From positions 22,316,792 through 22,380,791 of the forward strand of contig JAHRHZ010000133.1 in the NCBI GenBank assembly GCA_024137785.1: a stretch of DNA of 64,000 nt, written 5' to 3'. The position numbers and the translations under genes are program-made. How positions within the stretch are numbered: position 1 is the stretch's first letter; every line of letters starts with the position of its first letter. This DNA is from Ginglymostoma cirratum (lineage: Eukaryota). The notes under the pieces are model-generated. The model worked only from the letters and a program-made list of their open reading frames with translations. It had not been told where the DNA came from and did not search any database. Of this stretch, positions 1-52,703 are shown one piece after another.

Positions 1-118
1 GTCTAGGCCCGAAACATCAGCCTTCCTGCTCCTCTGATGCTGCTTGGCCTGCTGTGTTCATCCAGCTCTACACCTTGTTATCTCAGATTCTCCAGCATCT
101 GCAGTTCCTACTATCTGT
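1..118 (+). mobile_element. Penelope-like short element, 3' part (copy A, cut by window edge)
   Basis: Near-identical to 46661-46775 (gtctaggcccgaaac...ttctccagcatctgcagttcctactatc). Confidence 0.75.
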
Positions 119-2824: not shown

Positions 2825-3095
2825 CGCGGGTTAGCCATTCCTTGGTGCATTCTATATGGCAGTACTTTGACCAATTAGAGTTGAATTGTTTGAATTTAAA
2901 CAAAAGCCTGACTGTTACTTGATGCATTCTCCATGGCAACACCTCTACCAATTACAGTCCAGTTGCCAAGCAATCAGCACCCTCCTTTCATGCTGTATGA
3001 ATTGCTGTTCCCTTTGAGACTTGATATTCTTGTGATTATGTCCTGATGAGTGCAAGGTGAAAAGCTTTGACTGTATTTCTCTTTTTCAGCAATAT
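2825..3095 (+). mobile_element. Older Penelope-like pseudo-LTR fragment with a degenerate hammerhead motif
   Basis: Repeated CCAAT-like blocks, then gtc-CTGATGA-gtgcaaggt-GAAA-agcttt-gac at 3040-3071. Confidence 0.5.
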
Positions 3096-3204: not shown

Positions 3205-3521
3205 GAATAGAATTCCTACAGTGTGGAAACAGGCCCTTCAGCCAAACAAGTCCACGCTGACCCTTGGAGCATCCCACCCAGACCCAAACCCATCCCCCCA
3301 TAACCCACCCAAGCTACACACTACGGGCAATTTAGCATGGCCAATCCACCTAACCTGCACATCTTTGGACTGTGGGAGGAAACCAGAGCACCTGGAAGAA
3401 ACCCACGCAGACGCAGGGAGAATGTGCAAAATCCACACAGACAGTCACCTGTGGGTGGAATCGAACCCAGGTCCCTGCCACTGTGTTGCAGCAGTACTAA
3501 CCACCAAGCCACCATGCTGCC
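3205..3521 (-). mobile_element. HE1-type tRNA-derived V-SINE
   Basis: Minus-strand tRNA-like head with B box (ggttcgattcc), V-domain (ggtttcctcccacagtccaaagatgtgcaggttagg...gctaaattgccc) and LINE-like tail. Confidence 0.85.
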
Positions 3522-10872: not shown

Positions 10873-11045
10873 TGCTCTCCACTTCACTGCCACTTGTCCA
10901 CAAGCTCCAGCCTTGACCCCTCCTGATTGTTTCTCCTTTTCTCCACTACCTCCACCTCCTTTGCTACTTCAGATCCCTAGTAGTCCCTTATCCCAAATGT
11001 CTCTGTCTTCTGAACTCTCCTGATCCCAGGCATCGATGATAGGCT

Positions 11046-11645
11046 GAGCTAACAAGGTGTAGAGCTGGATGAACACAGCAGGCCAAGCAGCATCATCGGA
11101 GCAGGAAATCTTGACGTTTCAGGCCCGAAACNNNNNNNNNNNNNNNNNNNNNNNNNNNNNNNNNNNNNNNNNNNNNNNNNNNNNNNNNNNNNNNNNNNNN
11201 NNNNNNNNNNNNNNNNNNNNNNNNNNNNNNNNNNNNNNNNNNNNNNNNNNNNNNNNNNNNNNNNNNNNNNNNNNNNNNNNNNNNNNNNNNNNNNNNNNNN
11301 NNNNNNNNNNNNNNNNNNNNNNNNNNNNNNNNNNNNNNNNNNNNNNNNNNNNNNNNNNNNNNNNNNNNNNNNNNNNNNNNNNNNNNNNNNNNNNNNNNNN
11401 NNNNNNNNNNNNNNNNNNNNNNNNNNNNNNNNNNNNNNNNNNNNNNNNNNNNNNNNNNNNNNNNNNNNNNNNNNNNNNNNNNNNNNNNNNNNNNNNNNNN
11501 NNNNNNNNNNNNNNNNNNNNNNNNNNNNNNNGTTTCGGGCCTGAAACGTCAAGATTTCCTGCTCCGATGATGCTGCTTGGCCTGCTGTGTTCATCCAGCT
11601 CTACACCTTGTTATCTCGCATTCTCCAGCATCTGCAGTTATCACA
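11046..11645 (+). mobile_element. Fold-back Penelope-like element (copy B) spanning a 400-N gap; 11-bp TSD gatgataggct
   Basis: Arms 11046-11131 and 11532-11617 are reverse complements; TSD at 11035-11045 and 11646-11656. Confidence 0.8.
11132..11531. other. Assembly gap (400 N)
   Basis: N run. Confidence 1.
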
Positions 11646-12806
11646 GATGATAGGCTTTCTCCTTTCCTAATTATGTTTCTCTTCCTACTTACCTCCTTTC
11701 TGTGCACCCTGACCACTCCTCTGTAAACCTGTATATACTCATGCTGCTGACTCTTTAGTGTGTACTTTACCTTTTTTTTTGTCACAATGACATCAAGAAG
11801 GTCGTGGTTTCACTATGCAAGAGAGCCATATGCTGAGCATAGAGACACACTGATGGACAAACTTGCAGAATTCATTGTTAAATTTCTTGCGATGCATTTA
11901 TTTCCTTACTGATTGTTTTGCATGCAAATCTTAATCAATTTTATTTTCTAGTCTTGTAATCCTTAATGTTCAAAAGGATTGTAACTATGTTGTACTCATC
12001 TCTTGTTGTCCTGTTTTATACTTTAGCACTGCTAATCAAAAACAGTGAAACAGAAGTGTGGAACTCTCCCCTCACATGATGTGAATAAACAAGCCAGGAA
12101 CATCATTCATTTCAGTAGATTAGATTATTCGTAGTATTATTTGTTGACAGTGTCACCGAATAGTCATGGCAACACAGGAAGCACAGGTAAACACTAAAAT
12201 GCATCTTTCTGAGTTGTCTGTAATCAACAATTCTAAAGGAGGCTATAGAGTAATGCAGAAACACTTATGGAGCTATAGATATTTCCTTTATTAACTCTGA
12301 ACTGTGTGAGAGCTCAGCACAGTACCCTCCCTTTTATGAATGTTTGTTCTTTCAGAGGATCTTTTGAAAGGAGAGAATAAGTAACTCATAGGATTTGTTT
12401 ACCACCCTCTTCCCCTTTTCAGCTGCGAGTTCAATCCTTTCAACGAACATAGTGACCAAGGCTGAACCACATGCTTTTTAAAAGGGTAAAAATGCTTTCC
12501 GGTTTCATTGACGGTTACAATATGATTCAGACCCATTTACAAGTCTTACCAACGCTGGAGAGTTCTCAACCTCAAGCCAGAAAGATAGTGAAAGAAAGTG
12601 AATATTGGATCCCCATTTCTAACCTGTCACTTTGATGTAAAGACATTATTAGTAAATGAAGGTATATTGATTGTGGCTCCAGGGTCAGGATTAACCAGAA
12701 TGGTCACTGCTCTGTTGAAGCAGTGGGTATTCTGCCTTGCAGCTATGGCCTTTTTGGAGGTCAGGTGCCCTGCGCCCGTTTGCACAGAGGAATTAGACAG
12801 AACATG

Positions 12807-13098
12807 NNNNNNNNNNNNNNNNNNNNNNNNNNNNNNNNNNNNNNNNNNNNNNNNNNNNNNNNNNNNNNNNNNNNNNNNNNNNNNNNNNNNNNNNNNNNNN
12901 NNNNNNNNNNNNNNNNNNNNNNNNNNNNNNNNNNNNNNNNNNNNNNNNNNNNNNNNNNNNNNNNNNNNNNNNNNNNNNNNNNNNNNNNNNNNNNNNNNNN
13001 NNNNNNNNNNNNNNNNNNNNNNNNNNNNNNNNNNNNNNNNNNNNNNNNNNNNNNNNNNNNNNNNNNNNNNNNNNNNNNNNNNNNNNNNNNNNNNNNNN
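12807..13098. other. Assembly gap (292 N)
   Basis: N run. Confidence 1.
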
Positions 13099-45940: not shown

Positions 45941-46278
45941 GGCATCATGGTAGCTCAATGGTTAGCACTGCTGCCTCACAGCACCAGGACCTGAGTTCAG
46001 TTCCATCCTTGGATGACTGTCTGTGTGGAATTTGATATTCTCCCAGTGTCTGCTTAGGTTTCCTCTGGGTACTCCGTTTCCTCCTACAGTCCAAATATGT
46101 GCAGGTTAGGTGAATTGGCCATGCTAAATTGCCCCATAGTGCCCATGGATGTGCAGGCTAGGTGGATTAGCCAAGGGAAATGCAGGGTTACAGGGCTTAG
46201 GTCTGGGTGGGATGATCTTTGGAGGATCAGTGTGGATTTGATGGGCTGAATTGCCTGCTTTCACACTGTAGGTATCCT
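45941..46278 (+). mobile_element. HE1-type V-SINE
   Basis: Homologous to 3205-3521 (head, V-domain and tail). Confidence 0.85.
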
Positions 46279-46562
46279 GTGAAAACATTCTGATAGCTCG
46301 GACCAAAATGTATGATAAGGGTGGCTTTTAAGAGATGGATCCACCAGAAAGTTGTAATCCTTGTTCATTGATTTTATATTGAGATAGATGCAGTAATGAC
46401 GAGAAGTTCTGTTGTCCCAGGATTCCTCATTTAATTTATCTTTGCATTTTCCAGCTGCAGCTTCCCAATAAATTCTCTTTCGGTGAGAGAAAGAATTTGA
46501 AATTGGTTAAAACAATGCACAGATTTTGAAACATAAAGATGAACCAGGACTACTCTCACTCA

Positions 46563-46776
46563 CTGAGATAACAAGGTGTAGAGCTGGATGAACACAGCAG
46601 GCCAAGCAGCATCAGAGGTGCAGGAAGGCTGACGTTTCAGGCCTAGTTTTCTGAAGAAGGGTCTAGGCCCGAAACGTCAGCCTTCCTGCTCCTCTGATGC
46701 TGCTTGGCCTGCTGTGTTCATCCAGCTCTACACCTTGTTATCTCAGATTCTCCAGCATCTGCAGTTCCTACTATCC
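46563..46776 (+). mobile_element. Fold-back Penelope-like element (copy C): 84-bp arms, hammerhead core, 17-bp TSD
   Basis: Arms 46563-46646 and 46663-46746 (2 mismatches); TSD ctactctcactcactga at 46550-46566 and 46777-46793. Confidence 0.85.
46651..46678 (+). ncRNA. Minimal type-I hammerhead ribozyme core candidate
   Basis: CTGAAGA-a-gggt(ctag)gccc-GAAA-c-GTC; palindromic ACGT helix III; helix I weak. Confidence 0.55.
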
Positions 46777-46959
46777 CTACTCTCACTCACTGACTGATTA
46801 TACACAATTTCAGGGACGCTGTTTTCAAGCATATCACCAGATTTTAAACGCAGAGACTAGGAAGAGAATTCAATTGAGTGGAAGGCGTAATTTCTATACA
46901 ACTGTTTTGTATGATGCACAGCCGCCAATTATTAAAATCAGATATACCAAAGGCCAGAA

Positions 46960-47240
46960 ATAGTGGTGTGTTGAGATCTCAAAAGCTTTTAAGGCTGAAG
47001 GAGATTACAGCGATACAGCTGGGCAAGACCATGGAAGGATTTGAAACAGGATGAAAATATTTAACCTGGGCCCTGCTGGATTGTGATCCAATGTAGATCA
47101 GTGAGTACGGAGAATAGGACTTGGTGCAAAGTCAGACACAAACAGCTAAGTTTGAATGATCTGAAGTTTATGTGGGGTGGAAGATGGGAAATTGGCAGGA
47201 GAGCTCTTGAATAGTAATGCCTAGTGGTAACAAGGGTAGC
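46960..47240 (-). mobile_element. L2-like LINE 3' fragment
   Basis: Minus ORF 47061-47249 ..VLTDLHW.. resembles the L2 PVL.xLHWL motif. Confidence 0.5.
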
Positions 47241-47974: not shown

Positions 47975-48065
47975 CATAAAACAAAGTACTGCAGAAGCTG
48001 GAGATCTGAAATAAAAACAGAAACTGCTGGAGAAGCTCAGCAATCTGGTAGCATCTTGTGGAGGG
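47975..48065 (-). mobile_element. Older relative of the Penelope-like element tail
   Basis: actgcagaagctggagatctgaaataa...agcatc is a diverged reverse complement of the copy A-E tail. Confidence 0.5.
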
Positions 48066-48139
48066 ATGCTGCAAGATCTGCTAAGTTTCTCTAGTTCTTT
48101 TCTGAAGTTATAGTGAATCATTTTACAAAATAATGGTTC

Positions 48140-48730: not shown

Positions 48731-49511
48731 CCAGGTGGCTTTGATGTTGGAGAAGATGTGAGATCACAAATTCATTTCAATCAGGAATACAACATGGTTG
48801 AAAACAGTTTTCAACCTAAAACTCAATTCAATATATTAATCTAATGAACCTAGATATTCAATTTCTGGATAAGAGTGGAAACCCTATCTATTGATGCACC
48901 CTTAACCTATTTCAGCATTCTTTAGGCAGTCACCTGCAACATGGCTAGTGCAATGGGCGAGAGAGGTGTGGTATTACTGCAACACATAGCCAAAGCTTTA
49001 ATTGTTACTTCATCACTGGCAGTTGGTCACTCTGTCATCAGCTGACATGGGGGAAATTAATAGGCCACACGTGCACCAAGCATGGGTGCAGACTTCCCGT
49101 TACACCTGTTTCATGAATTGCACTGAGTTGACAGTGACAGAAATAGTGAGATTTCCAGGAGGTGCTATTGTTCCTTTAGTTCAGCTTTTGACTGTGAGAT
49201 CTGCTTCGATTCACACCAGATACAAAATAAAAACACTTCTGTTTGCAGTGGAAATAAAATCATGAGGTAAGAGCCCAGGTCAGTTGCTGTCTAGATTCCA
49301 TTACTGCCCAATAATGGTAGGTGGCAATGTCACCCCTTCAGTCCTGAGATATTCACCCCAATTATGTTTTTATATCAGATGGAAGAAGCATAATAATTAT
49401 TGTAATCTCAGTAAACATGAGTAAAGAAGTTAATAATCAAGACACTTCTGTAAAGCTAGTGATTACAGTTGCAAATTTCAATACCATTAAAATGCAGTCA
49501 AAGTTTACTTT

Positions 49512-49655
49512 TCAGATTTTTTCTGTTGAAGGGTCTAGGCCCGAAACATCAAGCTTTCCTGCTCCTATGATGCTGCTTGGCCTGCTGTGTTCATCCAGCT
49601 CCACACCTTGTTATCTCGGATTCTCCAGCATCTGCAGTTCCTATTATCTCTGATA
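49512..49655 (+). mobile_element. Penelope-like element (copy D, no inverted arm); 13-bp TSD caaagtttacttt
   Basis: TSD at 49499-49511 and 49656-49668; core reads CTGTTGA..GAAACATC. Confidence 0.8.
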
Positions 49656-50304
49656 CAAAGTTTACTTTAAAGCTGGATTGATATTCTGCAACTTTGCAAA
49701 ATATTATCTTGGAGTATAAGGAAAGTTTCGCTGACTATCAGTTACTACCTGTACCCTAATCCCTTGGAGTATTGGGTAGAGGTCAGGCAGATTCTCCACA
49801 CTTTTTGAAGGGAACAGATTTATTTGATTGCATGGACTTTACCCTTCCTACATTGTACGCACTTGGGTTCTGAAAGAAGTAAAGGCATGCAATTTTGTCA
49901 ACCTCAGATTCTAGCCAAATGGATAACTTCTTTTTCGTTAAGGCGGATGTTACTTTGATAAATGCACAAGATGTGAGAGCAGAACAAAAAGAGGATCATT
50001 TATGTTTTATCATGATCTCCATAGAGACCAATAACTTTAAAAAAAAATTCTAACTTGCAGTTAATAGCAGAAACTTTGACATGGCAAGATTTCACTTTTC
50101 AAGACTTCTGATGTGACAAATGACAAAGTACTATTGATTATCTTTGGAGGCACTTTCTACTTTAAACCACAGAACTTTTTTTTTAGCAAAACCAAAGAAA
50201 CATGCTTCACAAGTATACAATATATTGTCCTTTTAAGTAGACAGACTATTCATTCAACTCACCTGAAACCAGTCCAAAGTGATTCCCAACTTCTAAGGGA
50301 ATAC

Positions 50305-50467
50305 GAGATAACAAGGTGTAGAGCTGGATGAACACAGCAGGCCAAGCAGCATCATAGGAGCAGGAAAGCTTGGCGTTTCGGGCCTAGACCCTTCATCAGG
50401 CCTGCTGTGTTCATCCAGCTCTACATCTTGTTATCTTGGATTCTTCAGCATCTGCAGTTCCTATTAT
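50305..50467 (+). mobile_element. Fold-back Penelope-like element (copy E); 14-bp TSD ttctaagggaatac
   Basis: TSD at 50291-50304 and 50468-50481; the inverted arm carries minus-strand CTGATGA..GAAACGCC at 50372-50399. Confidence 0.85.
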
Positions 50468-52703
50468 TTCTAAGGGAATACTTCTGCTTTTCTTGTTTCT
50501 CATTTGGTAAGTTTAAACCCCAGAACTGACCTTCATGATGAGAGGATGCCTGGAGTCCCTCACTCGAAACTAGAGCCCAAGCTAGGGAAGTCGCACAACC
50601 TTGTTTTACCTCTTCATGAATTTGGCCTTTATCAACCTGAGCATGGGTTCCCACCCACCTTTTGGTCTGGTGAACCACAGAGACTTTTGGGTCTCTTCCA
50701 GGGTATCCTGGACCTTAGAAGACTAACTGGTTCTTCAATTTTATGGGATATTTTTGAAACCTGCCCTCTGAAAACCCCATTCCCTTGGCAACCTGCATCG
50801 TGTGACCCTTGTATCCAGCCAGAAATGCTGATTAGTTATCCTTACAAGCCCAACTCTCCTCCATCTTGGGAATAAATAGACAGTTTAAGGTGCAACTGTT
50901 TACAATCTGAACTTCTCAATGCTTTGCTCGGACTATGGAGAATCTCAGTATGTCTCCAAGTGTAAATGCTTCCCAGTAACACATCGCAGGCCTTCCTTTA
51001 ATTTTTAGTGCCTCATCAGGCAAACTTCAGTACAGGTCACGTGCCTGCATTAATCTTACCCTATATTTAAAGACAAAAGTGCAAAACATCATAATTATAC
51101 AAATCTCATAATTGTAACTTTGTGAAGAAGTACAATGAAATTGCTTCTAATTGCTGTATATTCCCCAGGCCAAGGTAGAGAGAATGAGTTATTGTATTAT
51201 TTATTAATATTTGTTACAAAAACAGATAGAAATCTGACTTTTATTTGCAAGGTAGTAATAAATTTCTGAATTCTGCCTGTTCAGCAATTTTTTTCCCTTT
51301 GTTTCACGAGCAGGAAACATAAAATCCATATTTTATATTTCTGCACACAACCCTATGCTACCCAGGTCAGAATACTTAAAGAGAGGCTGTTTGGGAGTGT
51401 TGTGGCATGGGAAAAGGAAGTTAGATGGTGCAAGACAAAAAAGAATCTCTTAAAGGGATGGACATGTCTTTTGGTTTTCTGTTAGATGCTGAAAAAGATT
51501 ACACATCTGTATAGAACAATCAATTCTGTTCATCTTATTAACCTCAATCAGCTCATCCTTAGCTAGGTCCATGCTGATCTAAATTGTAGAATCCTAGCTG
51601 TTTCAGCTATACCTGATAACTAAGATGCTTAGTTCAACCATCCCTCTAAACTACACTGGAAAGTCATGGTGGGATTTAATGATAGCAGGCTAATAGGGCC
51701 ATTGGTTTATCTGGATGTAGCAAATCATAGAAAATCAGAGGGCAGGAGCACCCTTTCTGAATGGAGGTTCCTTTGCAGGCAGAGCTCTTCCTAATCAGTA
51801 TTCCTGTGTCCAAGTGATCCAACAGCCCCCAGGCAGGAATAGGAAAATCAGGCCAGTAAGTTTACAGGAGCTTGTAGTAGCTGGATTGGTCATACGTTTT
51901 CTCGAGGCTAAACAATTAATTACATGCTCCTTTAGCTTGAACTCTATTTGTAACAACTGCTTTCGTGGAAGATTCAGTGGTGGATATTAATTCTTGTTGC
52001 TCACTTAAGCTTCAAACATTTATATTTCTGCGTAGGAGAAATCAAATCATACTGGCCCGCCAAAACATAAGGAAAATTCTGCTTTTCATACAAACGCAGT
52101 TTACTATATTAAGATATTAACATTCATCAGCCTGTTCCTATTAAGGCTTTCTATCTGTGACAGGACCTAATAGACATGTCTTTCAGTTTAGGGGGTATAA
52201 CCCAGTTTATCAGTTACAAGATTCCACAAACCGGTTAAGCAACTAGTTTTAGAGGATAGTTTTGCTTAAGTTGAAATGACAATCAAACTTGGGCTGTGTT
52301 CCAGATGAGTACAAATTGACATTAAGATTTCAAAGGGCCAGAATGCTAAAAATAGAAGTTGCCAGGTGTGGCGCTGAATTAGTAAAGTCGAAAACAGGGT
52401 GGTATGAATTACAGAAAAAGAGGTTCCATAACCCTTCAACATTGATGCAAGGGAAAGTCAACCTTACATAGGCACCACAAAACTGTTTTTCTTAAAGGTA
52501 ACTGCAGTGGAATTATTATAATTATTGTAACGATCGGTTAGTGAGTGCATTAAACGAAAGTGTATTAAGCTTTCCGAATTACTTAGTTGAAAGTTAGACA
52601 CTTCTATTTGGTTAGCATTTTAAACATTTCTTTTTAAATCTCCGCATGTTAAATGAACCACTGTTGCTACTAACGTAAACATTCTGATGAGTATCCAAAG
52701 ATA

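Follow-up and report, generated by a model that had tools for sequence, protein, structure and literature searches.

How does an insertion of some two hundred nucleotides, folded back on itself and carrying a hammerhead motif near its centre, come to lie in a shark genome between perfect direct repeats? The 64,000-nt stretch of Ginglymostoma cirratum DNA analysed here (the window) holds such an insertion, referred to as the 46563 copy, and the original prediction described it as a young, non-autonomous fold-back retroelement with a ribozyme core at the apex of its hairpin. Its inverted arms, 46563-46646 and 46663-46746, are 84 nt each, differ at two positions (46619 and 46639) and are separated by a 16-nt spacer, and a 17-bp direct repeat without mismatch (46550-46566 and 46777-46793) brackets the insert. 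Four public sequencing runs were aligned to 46200-47200, including DNA contigs from a sister organism, organism B (run X5), and RNA (runs X22 and X23). Comparison of arms and repeats, together with an empty site found in X5, bears out the predicted arms, unique 3' tail and perfect target-site duplication (TSD). The call of a real insertion also stands, with its length corrected from 214 to 210 nt (46567-46776), since the last four bases of the left TSD also pair as arm and had been counted with it. The parts of the locus are as follows.

46550-46566, no strand: left copy of the 17-bp TSD; its last 4 bases pair with the pseudo-LTR/tail border, and the empty site holds a single copy.
46567-46646, minus strand: inverted, 5'-truncated pseudo-LTR copy without tail; arm pairing runs from 46563, corresponds to sense 46663-46746 and includes the 3' half of the hammerhead only.
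46647-46746, plus strand: direct pseudo-LTR-like segment; it begins with helix I's 5' strand and reaches the pseudo-LTR/tail border; loose ends of aligned sequences pile up before 46647/46648 and behind 46747.
46649-46680, plus strand: minimal type-I hammerhead motif, with core 46651-46657, an extra A at 46658 and a helix I of 2 bp.
46659-46662 with 46667-46670, plus strand: helix II of that motif, with GAAA at 46671-46674, palindromic positions 46674-46677 and a predicted cut after 46678.
46747-46776, plus strand: single-sided tail of 30 nt; at least 990 X5 contigs have loose ends behind 46775.
46777-46793, no strand: right copy of the TSD, marked by the direct repeat and the empty site.

The end of the TSD matches the template just past the pseudo-LTR/tail border, at 4 of 4 bases here (46563-46566) and at 5 of 6 (50299-50304) in a second copy of the family at 50305; the situation in a third copy, at 11046, is unclear. 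It is possible that this match reflects microhomology at priming. The last base of the tail, 46776, is unlike the letter of the family (2638 of 2707 and 2533 of 2602 X22 reads carry a non-reference letter) and may be untemplated.

The motif reads CUGAAGA-A-GGGU(CUAG)GCCC-GAAA-C-G-U-C at 46651-46678 on the plus strand. A strict descriptor of the predicted CUGANGA/GAAA/NUH core with short helix II and palindromic helix III found it once in the window, at 46651, and not at all in 200 first-order Markov simulations of window length. Helix II, at 4 bp, falls within the published range of 3-7 bp, and positions 15.2-16.2 are palindromic as published. Helix I has 2 bp (U-A and U-G) where the published descriptor sets a minimum of 3 (G-U allowed); a +A variant, in which helix I has 3 bp, makes up 4110 of 18021 X22 reads (23%), and a 2-bp helix I is listed for Drosophila virilis and Culex hammerheads in the consulted part of PMC4209133. 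The search with Rfam models that had been proposed as a check came out empty: at gathering score there was no hammerhead-family match in the whole window, and at E<=10 no hammerhead family was among the 25 matches over 46500-46850. These were 23 microRNA-hairpin models, one lncRNA and one cis-regulatory model, every one under gathering score, and we rejected them as matches to hairpin shape. Within the 40 of 217 variant rows listed, the X22 reads vary in the core at N7 (48%), in helix II by a U-G to U-A change (21%), in loop II and at two CpG sites (9% and 10%), a pattern to be expected from neutral decay together with selection acting on master copies, as judged from a listing outside which most rows lie. 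No pile-up of read ends was seen at 46678 in the RNA runs X22 and X23, which in fragmented libraries is weak evidence. Taken together, architecture and motif consensus support the predicted assignment to a Penelope-type pseudo-LTR end bearing a minimal type-I hammerhead, with self-cleavage as a prediction only. Cleavage of hammerheads as dimers is said to have been treated by Lunse et al. in 2017. A second hammerhead-like motif, belonging to another family, lies at 3040-3071 on the plus strand, with a CUGAUGA core, GAAA, a palindromic AGCU loop 3, a helix I of 3 bp and a weak helix II; it matches a loose pattern and fails the strict one. Weaker look-alikes start at 19969 (plus) and 26795 (minus).

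Whether the motif could work where it sits was approached by RNA folding. The predicted fold of the fold-back is one long stem (-176.5 kcal/mol, z -24) in which 46663-46678, that is the 3' side of helix II, GAAA and the cleavage triplet, is paired within the stem and not in a loop. Helix II has a pairing probability of 0.000, and imposing the hammerhead fold takes 25.8 kcal/mol in the fold-back vs 6.4 in the direct arm alone. The idea of a hammerhead core presented at the hairpin apex does not survive this prediction; the ribozyme motif of the 46563 copy would be a passenger, locked in the stem.

Five copies of the family lie in the window, at 1, 11046, 46563, 49512 and 50305, and the four with both flanks visible have TSDs of 11, 17, 13 and 14 bp (11046, 46563, 49512 and 50305, respectively). 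The number of copies and the TSD range of 11-17 bp given in the original prediction hold; its count of four complete copies does not, the 11046 copy being gapped, the 49512 copy armless and the 50305 copy short in its direct part. The siblings of the 46563 copy are these.

1-115, plus strand: sibling cut by the window start; one difference in 115 nt from 46661-46775, a CpG change in the helix III palindrome.
11035-11656, no strand: fold-back sibling with an 11-bp TSD and a 400-N gap at the apex (11132-11531).
49499-49668, plus strand: armless sibling with a TSD of 13 bp, in which A6 and 16.2 of the core are changed.
50291-50481, no strand: fold-back sibling with a 14-bp TSD; whole core in the inverted arm (U16.1 changed), direct part beginning at the equivalent of 46706.

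The hammerhead core is intact in the 46563 copy only, the other four of the five having a change in core or helix or lacking part of the core. In the 50305 copy the inverted arm is long, at 95 nt, and the direct part short, at 69 nt. The same 16-nt near-palindrome stands at both edges of the N gap in the 11046 copy (11046-11645), in opposite orientation; the gap probably marks a perfect fold-back, with helix II at its centre, which the assembler collapsed, and the 400 Ns may be spurious. Since a collapsed palindrome is suspected, we rejected the near-identity of the arms of this copy as proof of a single template. An older, diverged relative of pseudo-LTR and tail lies at 47988-48098 (on the minus strand 73% over 56 nt, on the plus strand a weak match of 71% over 34 nt), and is possibly an old fold-back. 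Elsewhere in the window we noted a high-depth repeat left of the insertion site (46200-46290), a SINE-like copy at 45987-46134 paired with 3325-3474, and a second N gap at 12807-13098. The segments 905-1837 and 34000-34518 are presumably LINE-like reverse transcriptase remnants.

The outer ends of these copies are fixed. All three inverted arms in the window start at the pseudo-LTR/tail border, and all five direct copies run into the tail or to its end. Among the 24 of 1091 rows listed for X5, loose ends fall at the border in at least 271, at least 298 and at least 263 contigs, and the tail-end pile behind 46775 comes from the same listing. The inner ends vary, and the apex differs in every window copy, no two being alike. 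In direct-arm coordinates the inner ends are 46663 and 46647 (46563 copy), about 46645 (49512 copy), 46651 and 46706 (50305 copy) and, by inference from the gapped 11046 copy, about 46666 on both sides. Six of the seven mapped ends, two of them inferred from the gapped copy, thus lie within 46645-46668, a span of 24 nt at the hammerhead. Such clustering could be the result of stalled reverse transcription, of a transcript start close by, of a short template that is non-autonomous, or of pairing between hammerheads.

Reads and contigs from the rest of the family extend this picture. The alignment contains 678 joints, and among the 15 listed are 12 arm-to-arm skips, which are 12 different pairs with 1-6 contigs each; another 277 joints have intervening letters (12 listed). 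The listed joints are selected and scattered over the pseudo-LTR, and so are no test of inner-end clustering. Depth at 46644, beside the apex of the 46563 copy, is 0.11% of that at 46655 in X5 and 1.8% in X22, rough shares given that short-read contigs lose long palindromes and that X5 counts are lower bounds; 68% of X22 reads at 46644 show a different letter. No dominant apex is visible in the family. With an apex that differs from copy to copy, one copy without an arm and so small a share of X5 depth for this apex, the original notion of a fold-back that spreads as a unit is not upheld. Loose ends upstream of 46648 share a C-rich tract (4301 reads at an agreement of 0.55 in X22, 18 reads at 0.86 in X23), and this shows that there are parent copies of greater length; the pile-up ahead of 46648 is itself partly forced, the reference having no upstream element sequence. 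In X22, 122 reads carry a joint of 46651 with 46744 on opposite strands, that is a full inverted pseudo-LTR and the tail alone, a pure inversion without duplication, and the listed skip from 46598 to 46756 likewise has inverted sequence that is absent from the direct arm. Two further joints were seen in X5. One, from 46744 to 46648, is a 97-nt head-to-tail pseudo-LTR tandem in 12 contigs and could bring two hammerheads into the tandem order required for cleavage as a dimer; the other, from 46775 to 46565, sets the tail end beside the start of an inverted arm in 41 contigs.

The age of the insertion can be judged from organism B. Record 9 of X5, a 1538-nt DNA contig, joins 46243-46549 directly to 46777-47200, with one copy of the 17-mer and no insert, and is an exact empty site. 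Its flanks differ from the window at 17 of 731 nt (2.3%), with 2 gaps, while the arms of the 46563 copy diverge at 2 of 84 positions (2.4%, 95% interval 0.3-8.3%). The exact empty site in the sister organism means that the insertion is young, which supports the recent activity originally proposed, and the divergence values are compatible with insertion around or after the split from organism B. A contig of run X1 (46232-46591) reaches 25 nt into the insert, under our 31-nt acceptance rule, and was not counted; the overlap hints that a second sample of organism A has the insertion too. The family is very abundant, with matches in 49,952 of 12.9 million X22 records (0.39%; these records are about 24% of that run, a polyA library) and in 106,900 X5 contigs, summed contig depth not being taken as copy number. 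Of the matching X22 reads 97% continue into unlike sequence, and depth is zero on the flanks of the 46563 copy, so these reads come from other family copies.

A direct link to Penelope coding sequence was sought. Neither DNA scans nor protein searches nor a motif scan of the window tied a reverse transcriptase or GIY-YIG ORF to the element, and membership among the Penelope-like elements (PLEs) therefore rests on architecture and motif: direct and inverted pseudo-LTRs with variable 5' truncation, a 30-nt tail at one end, a variable TSD and a hammerhead in the pseudo-LTR were all found. As expected for an animal repeat, DNA pattern scans gave 0 matches in metagenome contigs (twice), prokaryote genomes and viral contigs. 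The six-frame motif scan of the window returned two isolated motif-B look-alikes and no PLE motif pair, a scan that weak ORF remnants may escape. An open frame of 41 codons spans direct arm and tail at 46654-46776 (plus), and searches with this frame returned 12 and 13 protein matches, including one unrelated repetitive protein at 37% identity; we rejected the frame as the start of a PLE protein, the other matches being short products of gene models whose flanks were unrelated. For the remaining two sense frames there was one match each among 6 and 11 candidates, neither of them a reverse transcriptase, and Pfam on 10 of the 18 matching proteins showed no reverse transcriptase or GIY-YIG family. 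A copy with T at 46655 would have a start codon at the hammerhead core, near the position of the anole ORF start, and the +A variant breaks the 41-codon frame. Translated pieces of the element occur in shark gene models, namely Stegostoma tigrinum ZNHIT3 isoform X2 and Mx1-like isoform X2 and Rhincodon typus LOC125487055, either by exon capture or by annotation error.

Starting from the TSD, the empty site, the fixed outer ends and the variable inner ends, all seen directly, and from the predicted block on folding, we consider it likely that the 46563 insert is a dead, heavily 5'-truncated PLE insertion from an abundant, recently active family, probably primed from both target strands. On this best reading the remnant consists of about 100 nt of pseudo-LTR with the minimal hammerhead motif, plus the 30-nt tail. 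By analogy with published PLE biochemistry, the GIY-YIG endonuclease of the element would nick both target strands, here 17 bp apart, and an uncleaved RNA would serve as template. Reverse transcriptase would extend both nicks from two internal starts, which would lie at the tail end and at the pseudo-LTR/tail border; both cDNAs would stop early near the hammerhead and would then be joined head to head. If two primings with early stops and a join are the route, the hairpin would be made anew at each insertion and would not be a replicating unit. It should be considered that not all observations fit this reading equally well. The inner ends cluster more tightly than random truncation of a 3-kb element would give, which also fits a short dedicated template; all three fold-backs carry exactly one tail, whereas Poseidon in vitro showed no strand difference in start site; and a helix I of 2 bp lies below the published descriptor minimum.

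The alternatives differ in how much of this account they would replace. One concerns the mechanism of inversion only, with the same element: a single cDNA might fold back and prime on itself, as was proposed for palindromic junctions of rotifer Penelope elements (PMC3846280). The 11046 copy has the look of a perfect palindrome with a self-complementary 4-mer at its centre, another such 4-mer terminates the inverted arm of the 46563 copy, and the listed joint from 46608 to 46702 is a nearly perfect mirror, so that self-priming, while doubtful, deserves some weight. It leaves unexplained why the inverted arm always lacks the final 30 nt up to the end of the tail and borders on the TSD. Moreover, where an inverted arm holds sequence missing from the direct arm, as in the 50305 copy, the 46651/46744 joint and the 46598/46756 skip, two primings are needed; these asymmetric copies favour two primings over a single self-primed fold-back, although later deletion could also yield them. 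Another alternative changes the template. A short, linear, non-autonomous RNA of about 130 nt, comparable to a SINE or a retrozyme monomer, or else the 5' leader of a PLE transcript, might run from the hammerhead to the tail or beyond and be mobilised by PLE proteins in trans, with fold-backs still arising at insertion. The inner-end clustering, with its two inferred ends, fits this, as do the head-to-tail joints from 46744 to 46648, the proposal that retrozymes derive from pseudo-LTRs (bioRxiv 10.64898/2026.07.22.740005), the finding that product length in vitro tracked the template's 5' end (PMC11167929) and, weakly, the fact that 5 of 6 'FLK' gene-model proteins differ in the preceding residue from what the shared tract predicts. 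The shared upstream tract, which continues in many reads and contigs, and the partly forced pile before 46648 count the other way. The window copies, moreover, are dispersed, not tandem, and retain the core upstream of the cut, which means that a self-cleaved monomer was not the template. On balance we regard a short template of either kind as unlikely.

Two readings would give the hairpin or the motif a function of its own, and a last one would deny both. The hammerhead might act as a pairing site and a stopping point, with two RNAs paired through the helix III palindrome and held by a protein dimer. Each RNA would then template one nicked strand from its own internal start, and the cDNAs would stall at the paired hammerheads and be joined. 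Such pairing would account for the one-sided tail, for an inverted arm that overlaps the direct one, for inner ends clustered at the hammerhead and for the published result that insertion does not require cleavage. A 4-bp palindrome is, however, worth only -3.1 kcal/mol by prediction, the clustering comes from seven ends, and stalling or a nearby transcript start would fit equally, which makes pairing quite improbable in our view. A hairpin element that is non-autonomous, fixed in structure and retrotransposed whole, its apex holding a functional ribozyme, would account for three of the four window copies with both flanks being fold-backs with TSDs, and the joints between tail end and inverted-arm start in X5 could be tandem whole units. 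The absence of a shared apex in the window, the small depth share of this apex in the family and the folding cost all oppose it; the spread of apices largely refutes this reading, and we give it very little credence. A MITE, a fold-back DNA transposon or a hairpin of microRNA type, in each case resembling a hammerhead by chance, would have a long inverted repeat, as here, and Rfam microRNA models do score on hairpin shape. The one-sided tail, TSDs of 11-17 bp, the armless copy, the absence of the motif in 200 simulations and Rfam matches that all stay below gathering score leave this with a negligible probability, and the symmetric terminal inverted repeats and fixed TSD length of a MITE or fold-back DNA transposon were not what we found. 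Insertion of a truncated PLE, probably primed twice, is the reading we carry into the comparison below.

That PLE ends carry minimal hammerheads, inverted 5' copies and tails is already in print, and the object itself matters little. Its family is of more use for the question of how inverted pseudo-LTRs and one-sided tails are formed, since clean TSDs, empty sites, fixed termini and a possible clustering of inner ends at the hammerhead could separate twin priming from self-priming, and could reveal a role, if there is one, of the ribozyme motif in stopping or in pairing. There is also a practical side: fold-back palindromes of this kind break short-read assemblies, as at the gap 11132-11531, and leak into shark gene models.

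The priming scheme invites comparison with LINE-1, where twin priming from both target strands gives 5' inversions whose inverted and direct parts do not overlap. Here the overlap reaches 84 nt, unlike LINE-1, and a second template or strand displacement would be needed. In the literature consulted on Penelope elements and hammerheads we found no description of this shark family, and the term twin priming was not found in connection with Penelope inverted pseudo-LTRs; a Penelope-like expansion in whale shark introns is reported (bioRxiv 10.1101/443036). Published PLE insertions have a shorter inverted 5' pseudo-LTR, a one-sided tail of 30-40 nt and a TSD (PMC3846280, PMC8557442, PMC8969392, PMC2377424, for this and all following sources in the parts consulted), and in Pen2a_Av of the rotifer Adineta the inverted pseudo-LTR is shorter than the direct one, with a 31-bp tail on one side and a TSD of 9-10 bp (PMC3846280). 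The family described here is like such EN+ PLE units in its head-to-head pseudo-LTRs, one-sided tail, variable TSD and strong 5' truncation (PMC3846280, PMC8557442). It is unlike them in that the 210-nt insert has no coding sequence and that TSDs are 11-17 bp, where those of the rotifer examples measure 8-10 bp.

Cervera and de la Pena (2014, PMC4209133) described solo hammerheads and pairs on opposite strands from truncated PLEs. The motif shares with their minimal hammerheads the CUGANGA box, the extra base between 9 and 10.1, G10.1-C11.1, GAAA, NUH and the palindromic 15.2-16.2, in a layout nearly the same as that of the Acropora Neptune motif, and departs from their descriptor in its 2-bp helix I, with 3 bp in the +A variant; among the names in the species list of their Fig. 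S3, as consulted, we found no cartilaginous fish. For the Anolis carolinensis Poseidon element, PAc, both target strands are nicked and extended and uncleaved RNA is used (Frangieh 2024, PMC11167929). Its ORF begins at stem II, reverse transcription starts 111-118 nt inside this ORF, and the tail lies between the two start sites. The fixed outer ends of the present family match these start sites: the distance from the start of helix II to the 3' end is 118 nt here, and two termini bracket the tail. In the anole study, as in X22 and X23, there was no read-end pile-up. Unlike PAc, the 46563 copy has no start codon at stem II, and only one of its arms carries a tail, where no strand difference was seen in vitro.

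Non-LTR retrozymes are the remaining point of comparison. By definition these are 150-450-nt repeats in tandem, whose hammerheads are mostly canonical and whose RNAs are circular (PMC7229834; bioRxiv 10.64898/2026.07.22.740005). The present family resembles them in being short, non-coding, related to pseudo-LTRs and equipped with a type-I hammerhead, and differs in that its window copies are dispersed, inverted and bounded by TSDs, with a minimal motif. No head-to-tail tandem with complete hammerheads was found in the window, and no joint of circular type stands out among the 15 of 678 joints listed, from data in which one library was polyA-selected. The preprint (bioRxiv 10.64898/2026.07.22.740005) covers one cartilaginous fish in the part consulted, and its chondrichthyan retrozyme families may include the one described here.
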